Shown here: positions 34,490 to 44,311 of the stretch, piece by piece
Numbering within the stretch: position 1 is the first letter of the stretch
How the letters are laid out: each line of letters begins with the position of its first letter
Origin: Promethearchaeota archaeon
Lineage (GTDB): Archaea; Asgardarchaeota; Lokiarchaeia; Sigyniarchaeales; SOKP01
Assembly: GCA_016930515.1 (NCBI GenBank)
Contig: JAFGGO010000108.1
Span: forward strand, 1-64,000
DNA length: 64,000 nt
Reading direction: 5' to 3'
Position numbers and translations under genes: made by a program
The notes under the pieces: model-generated
Told to the model about the DNA's origin: nothing
Database searches by the model: none
What the model saw: the letters and a program-made list of their open reading frames with translations, nothing else

Positions 34490-35137
34490 ATGAGTTTGCT
34501 ATTAGATAAAATTAAAGGCTTAATTGGAGGAAACGAACTACAAGAAATCATAAAGGATTTTAGCGATATAATCAAAATTGAAACTAATATGATAAAATCC
34601 TCAAAGGAACGGATCTCAAGTCTTCAAAATTACGCTAAAGTCGAGACACCAACTCTCAGAGAAGCAATAGAGTCCTTAGGAGAAACCTTCGAAAATATCG
34701 ACGGTGCAAGGGAAGAAAAGATCGACCAAATGCACGATAAGTTCTTAACACCATTGAACGATTTATTGGAAGAATTTAAGGAGTTATCTACGGAGTTAAA
34801 AGAATCGGAGAAGGCCAAAAAAGACTTGGAGAAAGCAAAATCCAAGCTTACCAAGCTTAAATCAAAACCCAAGGAAAAATTAAAGCCGGGTCAAATGGAA
34901 AGCGCAGAAACTGCCGTAAAGGATGGTGAAACAAAAGTACAGAAAGAAGAAACTGAAGCCAAAGAAGCGAGCGTACAATTTAATCGGAAAAAAGTATCAA
35001 TCTTAAAGGCCGTTCTTGAAGATATTATAACCATCGAAAAAACTTTTCACGAAAAAGTAATTAATTTGATTAATCCCGCCCAAGAAAAAGCTAAAGCAAT
35101 CGATTTAGATGAAAAACCTGCAGAAGTTCCTGAATAA
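34490..35137 (+). CDS. BAR-domain protein, FAM92/CIBAR-like
   Basis: 215-aa three-helix pattern; YAKVETPTLR, KFLTPL kink, Lys-rich tip, FNRKK...IITIEKTFHEK...IDLDE. Confidence 0.75.
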   Translation: MSLLLDKIKGLIGGNELQEIIKDFSDIIKIETNMIKSSKERISSLQNYAKVETPTLREAIESLGETFENIDGAREEKIDQMHDKFLTPLNDLLEEFKELSTELKESEKAKKDLEKAKSKLTKLKSKPKEKLKPGQMESAETAVKDGETKVQKEETEAKEASVQFNRKKVSILKAVLEDIITIEKTFHEKVINLINPAQEKAKAIDLDEKPAEVPE

Positions 35138-36054: not shown

Positions 36055-36474
36055 TTATAGTGGTTCAAATCCAAGATCAATTCGTGGATTCTCTCCTGGA
36101 AGGGGCGTTTCTAAAAACTTAACTTTTACGGGTGTATCTATTTCGATTGTTTCTGGTTTTGACTCGTCCACTCCTACGAGTTGAGCAGACACCATCGGTC
36201 CTTCGTCAAGCTTAATAACGCTAAAACAGTACGGTTTATTTTTCGAATAACCCTTATCAACGAAAAATTTAGTTCCCACGCTAATGCACGTAAAGGCGGC
36301 TATTTTTCCCTTTCCCGACATTTCGGTCCATTCCATCTCAGTAGAACCACATTTCGTACAGAGTTTTCTTGGAGGTGCAAATAATTCCCCGCAACTTTTG
36401 CATTTCGAACCCATTAACTTCTTTTGGTTAATATAATCCAAGTAATTATATACAGTTATTTCTTTTTCAGACAT
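36055..36474 (-). CDS. DUF35/ChsH2-type Zn-ribbon OB-fold protein (thiolase partner)
   Basis: KCKSCG..FAPPR.LC.KC, SGKG.I..FT, KLDEGP; AGGTGA SD favours ATG 36474. Confidence 0.9.
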   Translation of the reverse strand: MSEKEITVYNYLDYINQKKLMGSKCKSCGELFAPPRKLCTKCGSTEMEWTEMSGKGKIAAFTCISVGTKFFVDKGYSKNKPYCFSVIKLDEGPMVSAQLVGVDESKPETIEIDTPVKVKFLETPLPGENPRIDLGFEPL

Positions 36475-36487
36475 TCTTTGCATCACC

Positions 36488-37747
36488 TTATTTTTGATAT
36501 ATTGTGACCACGCAAGTTCCTCCAGAACCTCCTAAATTATGCGTTAAGGCTCTTTCGACATCAAATTTAACTTGACGGTTTCGTTCGGCTCGTCCTCTCA
36601 TTTGCTTGAAAATCTCGACCGCTTGTGCGGCACCAGTGGCTCCAACGGGATGCCCCTTCGATTTCAAACCTCCAGAAGTGTTGATAGGGCGCACTCCGTC
36701 TCGTCGACTTTCCCCATTCTTCACGGCTTCGGCTGCTTTTCCTTTCTCATAAAAACCCAAGTCTTCCATTGCTAATATTTCTGCAATCGTAAAGCAATCG
36801 TGTACCTCAGCAATTTGCATGTCTTTAGGTCCGAGACCGGACATTGAATAGGCTTGCTTTGAAGCTTCTTTCGTTGCGATAAAACTCGTTAAGGTATCTC
36901 GGTCGTGTAGCGATAATGCCGCGCTTCCCTGTCCCGTACCGGTGATCCATAGGGGCGTGTCCGTGAACTTTCTTGCCAACTCTTCCGAGGCGAGGAACAC
37001 GCACGCTCCGCCGTCCGTAATTAATGAACAATCGAACAATCGTAATGGAGAAGCGATATAAGGATTAGCCGAACTTGAAAGAAAATCAATCTCGTCTTTC
37101 CAGTAGGGGACTTGCTGACCTTGACTTTCCGCTCTTTTTATTTTGCTTTCCATTATGTCTTTTATGCTTTGCTGCATTTGAGCAAAGGGGTTTTCCTTGC
37201 CGTTTTCATGGTTTTTTATTCCCACTCTCATGAGATCTTCTGGTTTTGTGCCATATTTATGAAAGTGAGCGGACGCAACAGCTGCATATAATCCTGGGAA
37301 TGTTGCTCCTGCAGGATATTCGTAAGTTGCATCTGCTGCTGCCGCCAATGCGTCAGTCACCATGGTCGTAGGTACTTCCGACATTGTTTCAATACCACAT
37401 ACGGCAATTAATTCGTGAACACCGGAAGCTATGCCCAAGATTGCTTGCCTCAAAGCTATTCCGCTGCTTGCGCAAGCACCTTCAAATCGGGGTGCTGGTT
37501 TTGGTGTAAGACCTACTAAATTCGCCATATTTGGACCTAAATGCCCCTGGTGATTAAATAGATCTGCAGTGAAATTTCCCACGTAGCAGGCGTCCACATC
37601 TTTGGCTTCAATACCATTATCAACACTTTTCACGGCGTCAATCCAAGCATCGACCCACAAATCGGGATTCCTCTTTACGGGAAAGTGCTGTCCGAACTTA
37701 CTCATTCCGGCACCGATCATCGCTACTTTTCTTGCTAATTTTCCCAT
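36488..37747 (-). CDS. thiolase-domain protein (SCP2/archaeal acetyl-CoA C-acyltransferase type)
   Basis: EGACASSG, DCSLITDG, EVHDCFT, NTSGGLKSKGHPVGATG, HNLGG. Confidence 0.93.
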   Translation of the reverse strand: MGKLARKVAMIGAGMSKFGQHFPVKRNPDLWVDAWIDAVKSVDNGIEAKDVDACYVGNFTADLFNHQGHLGPNMANLVGLTPKPAPRFEGACASSGIALRQAILGIASGVHELIAVCGIETMSEVPTTMVTDALAAAADATYEYPAGATFPGLYAAVASAHFHKYGTKPEDLMRVGIKNHENGKENPFAQMQQSIKDIMESKIKRAESQGQQVPYWKDEIDFLSSSANPYIASPLRLFDCSLITDGGACVFLASEELARKFTDTPLWITGTGQGSAALSLHDRDTLTSFIATKEASKQAYSMSGLGPKDMQIAEVHDCFTIAEILAMEDLGFYEKGKAAEAVKNGESRRDGVRPINTSGGLKSKGHPVGATGAAQAVEIFKQMRGRAERNRQVKFDVERALTHNLGGSGGTCVVTIYQK

Positions 37748-37849: not shown

Positions 37850-40180
37850 TTAATTCCTTTCTTTTACTGGCATAAATATTTTAAAAAAATCCCGTTTTAC
37901 CTTGACATTACCTTGAAAGTTAACAATCATCCGATTACCTGAAAGGTTAACGGCGTGGAAACTACTGTAATTTCGCCCAAATCCTATAAAAGTAACAATA
38001 TCTCCATTATTTAGATTAGAGTCCAATTTAGAGGAATCTTTTATTCTTAAAAAGGTTCCAGATTTCAAATCTTCGAGCGAATTGATATTATGAATCGTTG
38101 CGAAAGAAAAAGAACCCGAATAATTTTCAAAAATGTAATCGTGAAGTTGCTTAAGTGGTTTTTTTTCGATTTTAATGGTTTCTCCCTTGATTCCCCTTTT
38201 TGCTATCAATAATGCCGCAATGGCGTGATCCACGAAACCTTTTGCTCTCACTTCGTTCACCAACTTGCCTTGTTGTAAATGAAACATTGCTTCTTTAGTC
38301 GTTTTAAATTCGTCTACTAAAAAGATATCGGGCGGTTCGAAGCGATTTTTTAGAGGTACATTTTCTTGTTCCATTCCTTCTAAATCGTTCAGGTTAGATT
38401 TTACGCAGGATAAATTATCGCAAGGTATACCAAAATATTCAATGAAAAAATCGATGATAAAATCGGAACCAGGACCGTGCCCCACGAAAATCTTGTTGAT
38501 CAATTCCTTTTTTTCGCTAAAAAACAACCCGAGTTCTTCTTCGATTTGCTGTTTTGCAACGCTTTGAGATCTAAGGTCCTTGATGTTGCTCTTTAAATTC
38601 ACATACCATAGTTCTGGCAATTCTCCGTGTTGGATGAGACAAAATCCAAAATGTCTCGTCCCAGGATCTACGGCTAATATCACTTCTTTTTGCTTAAATG
38701 TAAAGAGGTTGATGTCTGCCTTTCCTTTAGATATTTTCATCAATGAATTGAAAAAAGGTTCGAACTCTTGGTTTTTAATTTGTAGAAAAAAATCATGAGC
38801 TTGACTTTGGTAAAGCACTTCGATGTTGTATTTTTCGATTAAGGAAAAAAGATCGTGGTAATTTTCAACTTTCACAATGATATCTTGGCGAGGATCTATT
38901 TTAATTATTTTAACTTTCTCTACTGCTTTTGCTATGGCTTGGGCAATGTCGTCCTCGTTCTTTCCCGAAAGAATGTCCACATGAAGTCCGTCTAGATGGA
39001 ACGCTTCGTAAGCCGTCGAAGCACCTAGTAAATCGAAAAGTCTCTTTTCTTGGTTCCCCCCTCTTGAGATTGTTAATTTTTTTCTCGTTCGTGGGAAGAT
39101 TCTCACGCTTGCCGAGTTATATTTCCCCTTGCTAGGTGCATTTATCGTGATGACTCCTTTTAATTTTGAACTAATTACTTTAAATTCAATGAGATCTTCT
39201 AATTTCTCCTTTATGAAATCGAATTGGAGATCGCCAAGAACTAATATGTTAATATTTTTATTGTTTACAAAGAAATCAAAGGATGTAATTACTTTTTTCA
39301 GGTTTTCAAGGATCTCTGTCGCAATCTTAAATTTTTCGGGATCGTCAATATTAATTACGAATTCCTTGCGAGGATGTAAGTTGGACAAAAGCCCTGTTGT
39401 CTTGGGTGGTATGAATTTGCCATCATGATATTGGGTTCCTAGTTCAAACTCATTTTTTACATTTAGGCTAATCGTGACAATTTCGCCTTCAAGTGCCTGC
39501 TTTAAAGGAGAATTAGCCAGAGAAACCACTTGTCTTATCTTGATTTTATCGTTTAACCATTGTCCTGATTTTAAGGCTCCAGAAGTAAGACCAATGTTCA
39601 GCATCTCGCCAAGACCTTTCCGTTGTTTAAATCCTAATATTACAAAGGCCAATTCAGAATTTTCAAACTCTCTTTTTTTAAGATGAACGGAAATCCTTTC
39701 AATTAAATTCTCAATCCCCGTGATCTTTTTTGCAGATGTTTGGATTATCGGAATTCTTTCTTTCCCAAGCTTTTTTAACTCTGAATTGATTCTTTCAACA
39801 TTCGAATTAGGTAAATCCATTTTTGTTGCTGCGATGATGATAGGTAAATCTCTTTCCCGAGCTTTTTCGTAAAGCCAGTGTGTTCTAGCTTGGAAACCGT
39901 CCGTTCCAGAAATAACCAGTACTAAAAGGTCTGCAAATTCCAATCCCAAGGCAATACCTCCTTGAAAGTCGGCGTGACCCGGAGTGTCTAAAAAATTAAG
40001 CGTTAAGCTTTGTCGTTTCAAAACGAACTGAATGACCTTGAGGGACACCGTCGTACCGTGAGAAAGCTCGTAATCTAAATTATCGGGAAACTTTCCTACT
40101 ATTGCCTCAATCAAGCTTGATTTGCCGTGTTGAGCGTGTCCAGCAACTAGAACATTTAAAATTCTTTCCTTAGTAACCAT
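37850..40180 (-). CDS. translational GTPase (compact EF-G/EF-2-like domains I-V) fused to a YqgF/RuvX-like RNase H-fold domain
   Basis: GHAQHGKS, E..HGTT, DTPGHADF, TKMD, TSAK; domain III LGDLQFDFIKEKL; ILAVDPGTRHFGFCL, VGHGPGS, VDEFKTTKEA, VDHAIAALLIA. Confidence 0.85.
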   Translation of the reverse strand: MVTKERILNVLVAGHAQHGKSSLIEAIVGKFPDNLDYELSHGTTVSLKVIQFVLKRQSLTLNFLDTPGHADFQGGIALGLEFADLLVLVISGTDGFQARTHWLYEKARERDLPIIIAATKMDLPNSNVERINSELKKLGKERIPIIQTSAKKITGIENLIERISVHLKKREFENSELAFVILGFKQRKGLGEMLNIGLTSGALKSGQWLNDKIKIRQVVSLANSPLKQALEGEIVTISLNVKNEFELGTQYHDGKFIPPKTTGLLSNLHPRKEFVINIDDPEKFKIATEILENLKKVITSFDFFVNNKNINILVLGDLQFDFIKEKLEDLIEFKVISSKLKGVITINAPSKGKYNSASVRIFPRTRKKLTISRGGNQEKRLFDLLGASTAYEAFHLDGLHVDILSGKNEDDIAQAIAKAVEKVKIIKIDPRQDIIVKVENYHDLFSLIEKYNIEVLYQSQAHDFFLQIKNQEFEPFFNSLMKISKGKADINLFTFKQKEVILAVDPGTRHFGFCLIQHGELPELWYVNLKSNIKDLRSQSVAKQQIEEELGLFFSEKKELINKIFVGHGPGSDFIIDFFIEYFGIPCDNLSCVKSNLNDLEGMEQENVPLKNRFEPPDIFLVDEFKTTKEAMFHLQQGKLVNEVRAKGFVDHAIAALLIAKRGIKGETIKIEKKPLKQLHDYIFENYSGSFSFATIHNINSLEDLKSGTFLRIKDSSKLDSNLNNGDIVTFIGFGRNYSSFHAVNLSGNRMIVNFQGNVKVKRDFFKIFMPVKERN

Positions 40181-40231: not shown

Positions 40232-40708
40232 TTAAATCTCTCTTCGGAACCCTTCAATAGCTTCAAAATAATCCAAGATAGATTCCCTCAACTCAACGGC
40301 GGGAACAATGTTCCTAACTCTTCTTACATATTCAACAGCTTGAGACCAGCTCCATTCTGGATGTTCCTTTAATAACCACGCAACACAAATAGCTCCGCTC
40401 CGAGAAATACCCATAGCACAATGGACCAAAAGTTTTCTATTATCTTCTTTAATCTTCTTGTTGATAAAAGAGAGTACCTCCGCTATTATTTCGTGAGATG
40501 GATATGTGTTATCTGGAAAACCTCTAAATAAATATTCGAACTTTCCTCTAGGGGGTTGATAATGCTTGTATTCCATCAGGTTAACTATAGCAGTAATTCC
40601 TTCTTCTTCCATCTTCTTAAAATTTAGCCTGGGCCAATACGCACCAATGTATAAATGTTCATTTATCTTGTATATCTCGTCAAGCTCGGGATTTTTATAT
40701 TCTGACAA
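40232..40708 (-). CDS. dual-specificity protein phosphatase
   Basis: INEHLYIG, GITAIVNL, FPD, VHCAMGISRS, A..YVR..R. Confidence 0.92.
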   Translation of the reverse strand: MSEYKNPELDEIYKINEHLYIGAYWPRLNFKKMEEEGITAIVNLMEYKHYQPPRGKFEYLFRGFPDNTYPSHEIIAEVLSFINKKIKEDNRKLLVHCAMGISRSGAICVAWLLKEHPEWSWSQAVEYVRRVRNIVPAVELRESILDYFEAIEGFRREI

Positions 40709-40825: not shown

Positions 40826-42421
40826 TTATAATTTCTTTTTTCGTATCCTATAGAGGACAAAAGAAATTCCACATAAACCCGCTAATCCAATTAACCAAGG
40901 TTCATAACCAGGAATTCCCCCATTCTCTCCTGTTATTGCTGATGTATAGGCCGTAAAAGTGGGATCCTGCTCTATTGTCCCTCCAGCCCAATCTGGGAAG
41001 CAGGTAACATAATAAAATCCCACACTCACGCTAGATAGATGGCTTAAAATATAAGCAGCTAATAACACCCGAATACCGGCTCTTGTTTCAGTAAGATTTC
41101 CAATAAATCCCGCAATAAATGCGCCAAAACCCAAGATAGTTCCAAAATTAATAGGTGTCGAGACTAAGCCTCTACCCACAACAAATGTTGTAGATTCATG
41201 TTCTTCCGTGCCGTCGAGAGTATAATTGCTCGTTTCATCAAAGTTTAACTTATAAACTGGATGTCCATTAATATAACAAGTGGCTGCTGGGATTTCATGT
41301 GTTATTTGACCGATTGTGGAACCAGTAGAATTTTGAAATCCTATTTCGCTTCCTGAACCTTCGTCTATGTTGAATCTCATGATATTTACCGTATTGATAA
41401 CTGCAAGACTAAAACCTGGATATATCCCAAATCCACTTAACCTTGCTCCGATTCCTCCTCCAGCAGAATTGTTATAGTAACCTAGATAATAACCGCTACC
41501 TAAATTAAGAGAATCTCCTCCAATAGCTGTAGAGATAATTTCTTCCCATTGTGAAAATACCCACAGATTAGTCATTTCACCAATGTTGTATTTGACTCTC
41601 GTAGTGACTTTTCCGTTATCTATTGTAGTGATATATGTGAAATTGAGCTCCTCTATGACAGAGGCCGCAACAATGTTTCCCAAATTAGTAGACGAACTAT
41701 CTAAACCTGCTGATACGCTTAATGGTTGCCATAAAGTAAATACATTTTTATACGACATTCCATAGCTATATTCTGCACCAGTTGATGTTGTAGTTTTTTT
41801 CAAATTTATTGGTATTGCTTCAGTTTCAATTGAAGGATCGACGTGCATCCACGAAGGGGCTCCTGCATCATTAAGTCTTTCGTTAAGTAAAAGTCTATGA
41901 TATCCTGAATAAAACGACCATCCCAAGAACATGTGATTTCTATTGCTAGGAAGTTCCGCTGGATCTGTTTTATAATCATAGTATGCCATCAATCCTAAAA
42001 ACCTGTTCACAACAAATAAATGCGTCGCTGGATCGCCTCCAGGATTAAAATGCTGAACTAACAGCTGAAATGGTGCACACGCATATTCGCTTGAGTTATA
42101 TCCATTGTCAAGATCCCAAGAAAAATTCTGCATTGCAATATATAGGGATTGAACACCCCCAACATTTGTATAGGTTTGATAGAACTTTGAATCAACATCT
42201 GTGATTGAATCGTTGTGAGTTGCTGTTCCGTTATAAACGCCGGGTTTGTAATCTTCTTCTAATTGAAATCCTAAAAAATCGTATGACACATCCCAATATT
42301 CTTCTGCAAACGAATGGTCGTAGAGGTTCTCTCCTGCAGCAGCTACTAATGGTGTGGCAAACGAAAGCATTAAAATGGATACAATGGTCATGCTTAATAA
42401 TTTCTGTTTAAAATTTGCCAT
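40826..42421 (-). CDS. secreted surface/S-layer-like glycoprotein with a C-terminal sorting signal
   Basis: N-terminal signal peptide; many N-x-S/T sites; QDPTF; IPGYE + TM + RIRKKKL. Confidence 0.8.
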   Translation of the reverse strand: MANFKQKLLSMTIVSILMLSFATPLVAAAGENLYDHSFAEEYWDVSYDFLGFQLEEDYKPGVYNGTATHNDSITDVDSKFYQTYTNVGGVQSLYIAMQNFSWDLDNGYNSSEYACAPFQLLVQHFNPGGDPATHLFVVNRFLGLMAYYDYKTDPAELPSNRNHMFLGWSFYSGYHRLLLNERLNDAGAPSWMHVDPSIETEAIPINLKKTTTSTGAEYSYGMSYKNVFTLWQPLSVSAGLDSSSTNLGNIVAASVIEELNFTYITTIDNGKVTTRVKYNIGEMTNLWVFSQWEEIISTAIGGDSLNLGSGYYLGYYNNSAGGGIGARLSGFGIYPGFSLAVINTVNIMRFNIDEGSGSEIGFQNSTGSTIGQITHEIPAATCYINGHPVYKLNFDETSNYTLDGTEEHESTTFVVGRGLVSTPINFGTILGFGAFIAGFIGNLTETRAGIRVLLAAYILSHLSSVSVGFYYVTCFPDWAGGTIEQDPTFTAYTSAITGENGGIPGYEPWLIGLAGLCGISFVLYRIRKKKL

Positions 42422-42585: not shown

Positions 42586-42966
42586 TTAGATTTTGGCTAA
42601 ATCTCGGCTTGCTATCACACTTGCATCAAGACCCAAAACATCTTTAACGAGCACTTGTCCCATTATTAGCGGTGCTTCAATTTCTAGCGTGGCAATTTCT
42701 CTCAAGACATCGTCTAATTTCTCCTTAGGAATGGGTACATTGGTTCTCACGGGAACGAGAGGCAACAGCCCGTTTTTCACGCGCATCGTGGTAGTTAGAA
42801 TTCGTTTTGGAGAGATAAATTCCTCTTTAGCGTATTCTTCACCTCTCTTGCAGGTGTGTCCTTCCACGATGAGCTCTCCATTCACATTTTTCACATGAAT
42901 CTCGCATCCTGTTGGGCAAACAATACAACGCACGGTTTTTTCTCCTTCTGGTAAAACTTCAGTCAT
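42586..42966 (-). CDS. DUF1667 protein (third gene of the glpA-type operon)
   Basis: CIVCP.GC, G.TC.RG..YA..E...PKR.LTTT; AGGAGG SD favours an internal ATG. Confidence 0.88.
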   Translation of the reverse strand: MTEVLPEGEKTVRCIVCPTGCEIHVKNVNGELIVEGHTCKRGEEYAKEEFISPKRILTTTMRVKNGLLPLVPVRTNVPIPKEKLDDVLREIATLEIEAPLIMGQVLVKDVLGLDASVIASRDLAKI

Positions 42967-42982
42967 TTTCATCATTCCTCCT

Positions 42983-44311
42983 TTATATTGAGTTCCTCCA
43001 CTTTTCAAAACCATTCCGATTATTGATGAGAACTTCTGGTTCTGGAATCACTTCTATCTCCATTGCTTTAGTTTCTTGGTTCAAGCCAATCTCTTCTAAA
43101 TTCACATTTAATTCGATCATTTCGCTCGGTAAGACATATCTCCTCTTTTTTTTAAAAAAGACCTTGTTATTGTCGTCTTTAAATTGTATTAAAACCCTTC
43201 GTTCGGGGTGTTTTACTCGAAACGAAAAAATTACATCCTTTGAAAGGTCTTTCGTGTTTATCAAGTCCGGCTTCACGTAATTCACGTTTTCTCCTGCGCT
43301 ACACTTTATTTTTCTCTTTTTTTCGGAACACTTTCCAAACTTGTTGTCGATGTAATCAACAGCATTTAATCCTGCTCGTTTTGCTTCAGCGACCACTAGA
43401 TCCACGAGGTCGTGTACCTGTAATACGTTACCGCACGCAAAAATACCCTCTGAGGTGGTTTGAAGGTTATTATCTATTGTCGGCCCTCCATTTGAAGATA
43501 TTTCCGCACCGCAATTTTGTGTGAGTTCGTTTTCTGGAATCAAACCAACTGACAAGAGCAAGGTATCACATTCAATAAAGCGGTCAGTTCCGATGATTCT
43601 ATCAAACTTGCGATCAACTTTTGAGATCGTCACCCCCTTGACTCGATTTCTTCCATGAATCTTGGTTACGGTATAACTCGTGATGAGTGGAATGTCGTAA
43701 TCCTCCAAGCACTGGACTTGATTTCTTAAGAGTCCGCTGACGTATGGTTGAATCTCGACAACTGCTTTTACTTGACACCCTTCCCATGTCAATCTCCTCG
43801 CCATGATCATTCCAATATCCCCGCTTCCTAAAATCACATAAGTCCTCCCTGGAAGGTAGCCTTCAATGTTGACGAATCTTTGCGCCTGACCTGCCGTATA
43901 AATTCCCGAGGGTCTAAATCCTGGCATGTTAATCGAACCTCGAGTTCTTTCGCGACATCCCATGCTTAGTATGATCGCCTTGGCATTTATCTCAATAAGT
44001 CCCTCGTCCTTATTTATAGCGTGAATGACCTTGTCTTCTGATAGCTTTATGACCATTGTTTCTAACTTGTAGGGAATTTCAAGTCGTTTAACCTCGTTGA
44101 TGAATCTTTGAACGAACTCAGGTCCAGTCAGTTCCTCTTTAAATTCGTGAAGTCCAAATCCGTTGTGAATACATTGAAGCGTAATTCCTCCCAATTCCTT
44201 GTCTCTTTCGAGTATGAGGACGTTCTTGTTCTCCTTTTTTACGACTATTGCAGCTGCTAACCCTGCAGAACCACCACCTATGATCGCTACATCTGTCTCG
44301 TATTTTTTCAC
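42983..44311 (-). CDS. FAD/NAD(P)-dependent oxidoreductase, partner of the GlpA-like subunit
   Basis: GGGSAGLAAA, QCIHNGFG, LTGPE, GCRER.RG, GSGDIGMIMARR, GIFACGNV.QVHDLVD. Confidence 0.9.
   Translation of the reverse strand: MKKYETDVAIIGGGSAGLAAAIVVKKENKNVLILERDKELGGITLQCIHNGFGLHEFKEELTGPEFVQRFINEVKRLEIPYKLETMVIKLSEDKVIHAINKDEGLIEINAKAIILSMGCRERTRGSINMPGFRPSGIYTAGQAQRFVNIEGYLPGRTYVILGSGDIGMIMARRLTWEGCQVKAVVEIQPYVSGLLRNQVQCLEDYDIPLITSYTVTKIHGRNRVKGVTISKVDRKFDRIIGTDRFIECDTLLLSVGLIPENELTQNCGAEISSNGGPTIDNNLQTTSEGIFACGNVLQVHDLVDLVVAEAKRAGLNAVDYIDNKFGKCSEKKRKIKCSAGENVNYVKPDLINTKDLSKDVIFSFRVKHPERRVLIQFKDDNNKVFFKKKRRYVLPSEMIELNVNLEEIGLNQETKAMEIEVIPEPEVLINNRNGFEKWRNSI

Follow-up and report, generated by a model that had tools for sequence, protein, structure and literature searches.

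We describe a gene of a Promethearchaeota archaeon (Lokiarchaeia; Sigyniarchaeales; SOKP01; GenBank assembly GCA_016930515.1) in which one reading frame encodes, according to its translation, an EF-G-like GTPase, a YqgF nuclease and a basic beta-barrel. The stretch of DNA analysed, called the window here, comprises positions 1-64,000 of contig JAFGGO010000108.1. The gene, which we call the GTPase-nuclease gene, lies at 37850..40180 on the minus strand, as do all of the parts of it discussed below. Judged by its sequence, the protein is a member of a new lineage of translational GTPases with a fused, predicted nuclease effector, and this lineage is deep and previously unlisted. The conservation of the EF-G-like and YqgF fusion suggests nucleotide-controlled targeting of a nuclease to the ribosome. 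We consider the chances about even that the protein is an EF-G-like factor that brings its YqgF nuclease to the ribosome under the control of GTP.

The list of open reading frames (ORFs) and the translation give a protein of 776 amino acids plus a stop codon, in agreement with an earlier reading of the letters (the original prediction), which had proposed a single ORF at this place. The motifs named in that prediction are where it had put them. In the GTPase half these are GHAQHGKS (residues 14-21), HGTT (41-44), DTPGH (65-69), TKMD (119-122), LGDLQF (315-320) and IIKIDP (425-430), and in the nuclease half LAVDPG (501-506), VDEFKTTKEA (622-631) and VDHAIAALLI (650-659). The family alignment shows a protein that is highly and evenly conserved along its length, and about equally so in each of its modules.

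The G domain (residues 1-170; 39671..40180) has no G' insert and contains G1 (GHAQHGKS), G2 (HGTT), G3 (DTPGH), G4 (TKMD) and G5 (SAK). Pfam GTP_EFTU matches residues 5-167 with 101.3 bits (cut-off 26.5) and E 6.4e-29. Taken with about 85 homologues and invariant key residues, this score puts the features of the protein far beyond what chance would give in a sequence. Invariance was counted over 54 aligned Lokiarchaeial homologues, and in this alignment G19, K20, S21, T44 (in switch I), D65, G68, H69, K120, D122 and S149 do not vary. His69 of DTPGH (codon 39974..39976) occupies the place at which translational GTPases have their catalytic His, and it is invariant in 54/54 homologues and in the distant relatives; the role of a His at this place is established for EF-Tu and EF-G and is presumed to hold here. 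The GTP_EFTU score, the G1-G5 motifs, the domain II barrel and the DxPGH His together place the protein in the translational GTPase superfamily. The best NCBIfam and PDB sequence matches are to IF-2, LepA, Tet proteins, SelB and EF-G, with coverage restricted to the G domain and the beginning of domain II. The Lokiarchaeial proteins have GHAQHGKS as G1 and TKMD as G4; distant relatives carry the canonical GHVDHGKS, and in the Methanopyrus protein G4 is NKMD. Because TKxD is the G4 of working GTPases such as Rac and Cdc42, we do not take the Lokiarchaeial deviations as an argument against GTP binding.

To describe the remainder of the GTPase half we used an AlphaFold model of residues 1-500, built from 54 homologues, which has a mean predicted local distance difference test (pLDDT) score of 84.6 and a predicted template modelling score (pTM) of 0.76. 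Domain II (residues 171-262; 39395..39670) is a beta-barrel that is all-beta over about residues 178-257, with pLDDT of 86-93. Domain III (residues 263-340; 39161..39394) is assigned from the model, where its topology is beta-alpha-beta-beta-alpha-beta, and from alignments, in which PSFD...LGDLQFDFIKEKLE falls on EDPSF...GMGELHLDII of EF-G. Domain V (residues 424-495; 38696..38911) is an alpha/beta domain in the model. As modelled, the ordered cores of domains III, IV and V span residues 272-340, 343-421 and 425-484. Domains III and V thus follow domain II in the EF-G-type arrangement that marks the EF2 family.

Structural searches with this model returned factors related to EF-G. By Foldseek, full-length EF-G, archaeal EF-2, EF-G2, LepA and TetM were matched at E values of about 1e-26 to 1e-23 (best 2e-26). 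By VIA-align, the model matched Escherichia coli EF-G with Z 33.0 (332 residues at 2.6 Å) and Methanoperedens aEF-2 with Z 32.9 (423 residues, with residues 1-429 of the model on residues 6-622 of the chain). Snu114 was matched with Z of about 32, with alignments that extend to residue 494 of the model. In a comparison of profiles, hhalign placed residues 172-776 on an alignment of the EF2 family (E 0.0022; 137 columns), with coverage of domain II and the whole of domain III. The template for this consisted of six sequences, namely E. coli EF-G, LepA, BipA and RF3 and the two EF-2 proteins of the same genome. The domain III motif was in register, with PSFD...GDLQFDFIKE on EDPSF...GELHLDII (EDPxL...GxGxLHLEI), and a single-sequence alignment to E. 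coli EF-G supports the same register. The Methanopyrus homologue matches Pfam EF-G_D2 with 31.4 bits (cut-off 27) and, weakly, EFG_C at residues 426-485 (E 0.013). The Foldseek E value, the VIA-align scores and the hhalign register all support the layout that had been proposed for this protein, a compressed EF-G/EF-2 with five domains and no G' insert.

From the model we infer that residues 341-423 (38912..39160) are a short domain IV, which has four strands, a helix, a strand and a helix. This domain of about 83 residues has no match to Pfam EFG_IV. In EF-2, the tip loops of domain IV carry the motifs HxDxxHRG and SPHKHN (PMC6143161), and both motifs are absent from the translation and from the family alignment. 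With the tip-loop motifs missing and domain IV short, we do not regard the protein as a translocase proper of the EF-G/EF-2 kind.

The genome from which the window comes also has genes for aEF1A, aIF5B, two EF-2 proteins and two more factors, which are 473 and 537 amino acids long. Since this is the usual set of translational GTPases, the GTPase-nuclease is an extra paralogue. The two EF-2-type proteins (about 714 and 753 amino acids; loci G000:C67:34576-35163 and G000:C40:28827-29552) fit the paralogue pair found in most Asgard archaea (PMC6143161). We made an unrooted maximum-likelihood tree of the G domain and domain II with 22 rows, in which nine members of the family were combined with seven factors of E. 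coli and six paralogues that the window's own genome encodes. Members of the family form a single clade (100/99), which joins the central node of the tree, between the EF2 family (99/95) and IF2 with EF1/SelB (93/87). In these 22 rows, the phylogeny that the original prediction had called for suggests a separate deep lineage, with no nesting in the EF2 clade seen. The sequences suggest that the family is a deep lineage of its own among translational GTPases, with a domain III-V architecture that points to the EF2 family.

The GTPase half is followed by an RNase H-fold domain of the YqgF/RuvX type (residues 496-672; 38165..38695), assigned from Pfam RuvX matches and from its fold, in which the predicted catalytic set is apparently intact. 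The active site of Deinococcus radiodurans YqgF consists of three carboxylates, namely an Asp in beta1, a Glu that closes beta5 and an Asp in alpha3, and the Mn2+-dependent RNase activity is impaired or abolished when they are mutated (PMC9601230). The corresponding positions are Asp505 in the DPG of beta1 (codon 38666..38668), Glu624 in the VDE at the end of beta5 (38309..38311), which falls on the DE of E. coli DERLSTVEA, and Asp651 in the VDHA of alpha3 (38228..38230), which falls on VDSAS of E. coli YqgF. All three are invariant in 54/54 Lokiarchaeial sequences and in the relatives at 31-36% identity. A YqgF-type domain at this place with three acidic motifs had been part of the original prediction, which was to fall if the acidic residues were not conserved, and their invariance bears it out.

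Sequence comparisons with known families point the same way. Pfam RuvX gives weak individual matches in 53/54 homologues (best E 1e-4), the Lokiarchaeial forms falling below its cut-off. The Lokiarchaeial domain contains an insert before beta5 (about residues 585-617; about 38330-38428, minus strand) of 15-33 amino acids that varies in length and sequence and is absent from the Odin/Asgardarchaeum-type and Methanopyrus relatives. Four insert-free relatives (P0122, P0123, P0124 and P0138) score 29.2-31.1 bits with Pfam RuvX, for which the cut-off is 29.2, and in three of these four (P0122, P0124 and P0138) the match covers profile positions 2-128 of 134. Aligned by hhalign, VDEFKTTKEA...KGFVDHAIAALL falls on HDERLSTVEA...KGKVDSASAVII of E. 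coli YqgF; the match to RuvX is of the C-terminal motif block only (E 0.032), with a shallow template of enterobacterial sequences only. When residues 495-776 were used in a language-model feature search, every top cluster was of the YqgF/RuvX type, at scores of 0.75-0.77 that we treat as leads only. A PDB sequence search with the profile of the C-terminal half gave nothing meaningful, its match to protein kinase C eta (E 0.38) being one of chance, and no other RuvX-like match was found in the rest of the genome.

A second AlphaFold model, of residues 488-776, has a pLDDT of 69.8 and is poor over residues 624-671 and the variable insert. The order of its elements (beta1-3, alpha1, beta4, alpha2, beta5, alpha3) is RNase H-like, and there is one such domain. 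Fold searches with the C-terminal half returned RNase H-like folds only, with Z of 6.5-9.5. Among the matches were YqgF (1vhx and 1nmn), the YqgF domains of Tex and Spt6, MOC1 resolvase, RuvC, the RuvC domains of Cas9 and IscB, ASKHA half-domains and the central domains of Pelota and eRF1. Because searches by shape do not separate YqgF/RuvC from ASKHA halves and from Pelota/eRF1, our assignment to a family rests on sequence. We rejected an ASKHA ATPase, because there is a single RNase H-like domain followed by a linker and barrel, the matches are to half-domains and no ASKHA family was matched in Pfam. RuvC (PF02075) was rejected because beta4 (KIFVGHGPG) contains no acidic residue, there is no Glu at its end, the carboxylates follow the YqgF pattern and a weak RuvC match was seen in only 4/54 members. 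Membership in the Tex/Spt6 group was rejected because there was no Pfam match to Tex_N, HHH_3 or S1.

The YqgF domain is joined by a helical linker (residues 673-702; 38075..38164), modelled as two helices, to a small, net basic beta-barrel (residues 703-776; 37853..38074), modelled as five strands with pLDDT of about 90. The barrel is the small C-terminal beta domain that had been foreseen, and no segment of the protein is more conserved than the linker (majority fraction 0.78). In fold searches the best matches of the barrel were to an integron cassette protein (Z 7.4) and to the SH3-like domain at the C-terminus of retroviral integrases. A language-model feature search with the barrel alone gave no usable match. 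The net charge of the barrel is +4 to +9 in every relative, including the Methanopyrus protein in which the translational GTPase domains (G to V) are all acidic. This basic character throughout the relatives suggests nucleic-acid binding, and the barrel is probably a nucleic-acid-binding module.

The fusion is real and no product of misassembly. A word-indexed search found about 85 full-length homologues of 760-783 amino acids at 57-88% identity, all from Promethearchaeota (Lokiarchaeia) except one labelled Hermodarchaeota, after which there is a cliff to matches of the G domain only. This answers the call for a survey of the fusion across Asgard that came with the original prediction. A whole-library search, in which a profile of everything but the G domain was run against 1.84 billion representative proteins, returned 15 in total. 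These include the Lokiarchaeial cluster, five full-length relatives of 735-744 amino acids (from Odinarchaeota, Candidatus Asgardarchaeum and Asgardarchaeia), one from Methanopyrus sp. and a Baldrarchaeial fragment. The distant relatives, at 31-36% identity, keep the same architecture, which in this search was confined to Lokiarchaeia, two small Asgard families (Odin/Asgardarchaeum-type) and Methanopyri, with Baldr represented by the fragment. No natural split form was seen in the whole-library search. We rejected the short matches as such forms, because they are fragments at contig ends or beside frameshifts; for instance, P0121 begins 88 nucleotides from the end of its contig, and P0125, on a contig of 1.4 kb, overlaps the ORF upstream of it.

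A search of 400 genomes of the phylum with the profile of the C-terminal half gave matches in 36, which are 33/134 genomes of the organism's own family and the single genomes of two other families. The gene is patchy within its own family even among genomes rated 95-100% complete. In the class Methanopyri, the gene is in 6/6 genomes searched, one of which looks complete (first contig at least 1.58 Mb of 1.7 Mb). A pattern scan of species-representative genomes found it in four Methanopyri/Methanobacteriota metagenome-assembled genomes, in Candidatus Asgardarchaeum abyssi and in about 28 Promethearchaeota. The family is therefore not confined to Asgard archaea. Public records label the protein 'GTP-binding protein', and one partial homologue is listed at NCBI as 'Holliday junction resolvase RuvX'.

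The neighbourhood of the gene shows that it can be lost. In three genomes of the same genus (G153, G154 and G156) that are collinear with the window, the 2.4-kb gene is cleanly absent and the phosphatase and thiolase genes that flank it are 47-91 bp apart. From these clean empty sites we conclude that the gene is non-essential there. The order of GlpA-like genes, DUF1667, phosphatase and GTPase-nuclease recurs in other Lokiarchaeial genera, so the gene is probably ancestral at this place, and its absence from the empty sites probably reflects deletion.

If the protein acts as an EF-G-like carrier of a nuclease, its GTP form would dock, like its structural relatives, through the EF-G-like body at the factor-binding site of the ribosome (sarcin-ricin loop and stalk base). 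Docking would place the nuclease and the basic barrel on ribosome-bound RNA, which may be rRNA or pre-rRNA, mRNA or tRNA, with the C-terminal nuclease, which follows domain V, held on nearby RNA. The nuclease may reach the sarcin-ricin loop or stalk base, the A-site side or mRNA. Hydrolysis of GTP through His69, activated on the ribosome, would then release the factor. For E. coli YqgF, processing of pre-16S rRNA is reported to occur only inside 70S ribosomes (PMC9601230). The likeliest role would be a conditional one, in which particular ribosomes or RNAs bound to them are processed or cleared under stress or in quality control. We favour this over an obligatory part in ribosome maturation because the gene has been cleanly lost in close relatives.

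Several observations weigh against this proposal. The window protein scores 13.7-16.6 bits with Pfam RuvX, under the cut-off, and the region of the model with E624 and D651 is of low confidence (pLDDT <50). We attribute both the low RuvX scores and the low model confidence around the insert to the variable insert that the Lokiarchaeial YqgF domain carries. ASKHA half-domains match the C-terminal half with slightly higher Z (9.5 versus 7.4-8.6), and shape alone does not discriminate here. No activity is known for the YqgF domains of Tex and Spt6. On the G domain and domain II, the family is not nested within the EF2 family in the 22-row unrooted tree, and an EF-2-like body can work away from the ribosome, as that of Snu114, a top structural match, does. 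Ribosome binding, GTPase activity and nuclease activity are all predictions, made from sequence and models. Finally, the restriction of the gene to 33/134 genomes of its own family and its clean absence from three genomes of one genus fit poorly with a core role in ribosome maturation and argue against that role, which is one of those suggested originally.

Other functions are compatible with parts of these data. The protein could be a ribosome-associated GTPase whose YqgF domain and barrel bind RNA without cutting it, acting in assembly or remodelling like LepA and BipA, in which the additional C-terminal domains touch tRNA or rRNA, or with the YqgF domain as a scaffold like that of Tex and Spt6. 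LepA is among the best structural matches and likewise has no G' insert, Tex and Spt6 have YqgF domains that match the model with Z of 7.7-8.6, ESM Atlas models of Tex align over the YqgF domain, linker and barrel at low TM-score, and the barrel is basic. We nonetheless think this unlikely, given that a pure scaffold would not need the three catalytic positions that are invariant down to 31-36% identity and that these same residues are required for RNase activity in D. radiodurans YqgF (PMC9601230). A role away from the ribosome is more doubtful still. In this reading the substrates would be DNA or branched nucleic acids, cut at junctions or flaps by the YqgF domain in the manner of RuvX, and the EF-G-like body would be a GTP switch used as in Snu114. 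This would fit with the structural match to Snu114, with the RuvX name given to one partial homologue and with the resolution of Holliday junctions in vitro by YqgF/RuvX of Mycobacterium tuberculosis and Helicobacter pylori (PMC9601230). On the other hand, beta4 does not end in the Glu typical of RuvC, and complete translational GTPase motifs, the catalytic His and the domain II-V body are all retained. The surroundings of the gene also offer little to a DNA-processing role, with no repair or recombination genes near the locus in the six contexts examined.

The same six contexts contain no defence-island, mobile-element or candidate immunity genes, which argues against a nuclease of the abortive-infection or toxin type that inactivates ribosomes by cutting rRNA at the factor site when triggered by stress or infection. 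In favour of such a nuclease, the gene is patchily distributed in Lokiarchaeia, with clean presence and absence within one genus. The nuclease domain also follows domain V, which in EF-G lies beside the sarcin-ricin loop and the stalk base. However, the gene has a fixed chromosomal position with upstream synteny that is conserved across genera, its sequence conservation is high and even, 6/6 Methanopyri genomes carry it and the window protein matches no family in PADLOC-DB, where its relatives match only the G domain of LeoA. We therefore regard ribosome inactivation as improbable.

The proposal of a nuclease carried to the ribosome by an EF-G-like factor would set this family apart among translational GTPases. 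To our knowledge, characterised translational GTPases all act by binding and conformational change and none carries an enzyme that cuts RNA. The family may therefore be the first with its own catalytic effector, providing GTP-gated cutting of RNA on the ribosome, be it mRNA, tRNA or rRNA close to the factor site, and we put this forward tentatively, as somewhat less than an even prospect. The survey of translational GTPases by Atkinson (PMC4342817) contains no mention of a nuclease, YqgF or Methanopyrus. The study of archaeal EF-2 paralogues (PMC6143161) contains none of a nuclease or YqgF and reports no further EF-2 paralogues at its threshold. A search of full-text literature on YqgF/RuvX with archaea, Asgard, GTPase or fusion gave nothing relevant and no paper that describes the family. 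These results accord with the statement in the original prediction that no characterised translational GTPase has a nuclease.

Were the proposal true, it would provide a single-protein route for the conditional clearance of ribosomes or mRNA in some archaea. It bears on how archaea process and dispose of ribosomes and ribosome-bound RNAs, and we know of no nuclease assigned to several of these steps. With the family in 6/6 Methanopyri genomes, a heat-stable protein for biochemistry and cryo-electron microscopy should be obtainable.

The GTPase-nuclease gene looks like a separate transcription unit from its sequence. The 51 bp upstream of it are AT-rich and contain a TATA-like TAAATAATA about 25 nucleotides before the ATG, and a run of T follows the stop codon. 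The ORF that ends 51 bp upstream on the same strand (40232-40708, minus) is, as had been noted originally, a dual-specificity phosphatase (Pfam DSPc 5e-19). Its nearness does not extend to a conserved partnership. The phosphatase gene is directly upstream in some genomes only, is not beside the Asgardarchaeum and Methanopyrus homologues and remains where the GTPase-nuclease gene has been lost; for these reasons we rejected it as an operon or functional partner.

Upstream of the phosphatase gene is a 531-amino-acid ORF without a Pfam or PADLOC family (40826-42421, minus), and beyond it lie genes for a DAO-type oxidoreductase, Pyr_redox_2 and DUF1667 (GlpA-like; 42586-44311, minus), which are upstream in several Lokiarchaeial genera (L004-L006). 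This conserved GlpA-like synteny marks the locus as vertically inherited. Downstream of the GTPase-nuclease gene (36055-37747, minus) are genes for a thiolase (419 amino acids) and then a DUF35/ChsH2-type protein with a zinc ribbon and an OB fold (143 amino acids). Pairing of thiolase with DUF35 is typical of the archaeal acetoacetyl-CoA thiolase complex, and the pair belongs to lipid and mevalonate metabolism. The pair also adjoins the phosphatase gene in the genomes of the same genus without the GTPase-nuclease. Elsewhere in the window, a 215-amino-acid protein (34490-35137, plus strand) matches the eukaryote-type Pfam families FAM92 (5.3e-10) and BAR (5.8e-10). On the Methanopyrus contig, a 227-amino-acid ORF without a Pfam family (L001:8229-8912, plus strand) overlaps the stop codon of the homologue by 4 nucleotides, and is followed by dCTP deaminase-like and metallo-beta-lactamase-fold genes; these may be co-transcribed.

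When compared with known systems, the protein is most like EF-G, aEF-2, Tet(M) and Snu114 in its G-II-III-IV-V order, its G1-G5 motifs with the DxPGH His and the register of its domain III motif. It differs from them in an EF-G-like body that is about 200 residues shorter, with no G' insert and a short domain IV, and in a 280-residue nuclease and barrel extension that is found in none of them. LepA (EF4) is similar in its compact G domain without G' (TM-score by target 0.52), and both LepA and BipA/TypA have a family-specific C-terminal module after domain V. LepA and BipA are non-translocase, largely dispensable factors. They differ in having no domain IV and C-terminal domains that are not nucleases, they are bacterial or organellar, and the tree gives no orthology with the family described here. 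With YqgF/RuvX (PF03652), the C-terminal half shares the motifs D-x-G-x-[KR]-x-x-G, DE-x-x-[ST]-T-x-EA and VD-x-A-x-A; by contrast, YqgF/RuvX is a bacterial stand-alone protein of about 140 amino acids and what we see here, from sequence, is a domain of a 776-amino-acid archaeal protein. Tex and Spt6 resemble the C-terminal half in having a YqgF fold, matched at the Z values given above, that is followed by helices and a small beta-barrel, and ESM Atlas models of Tex align over residues 1-280 of the C-terminal model at low TM-scores (0.37-0.39). They differ in the N-terminal partner of the YqgF domain, which in this family is a GTPase.

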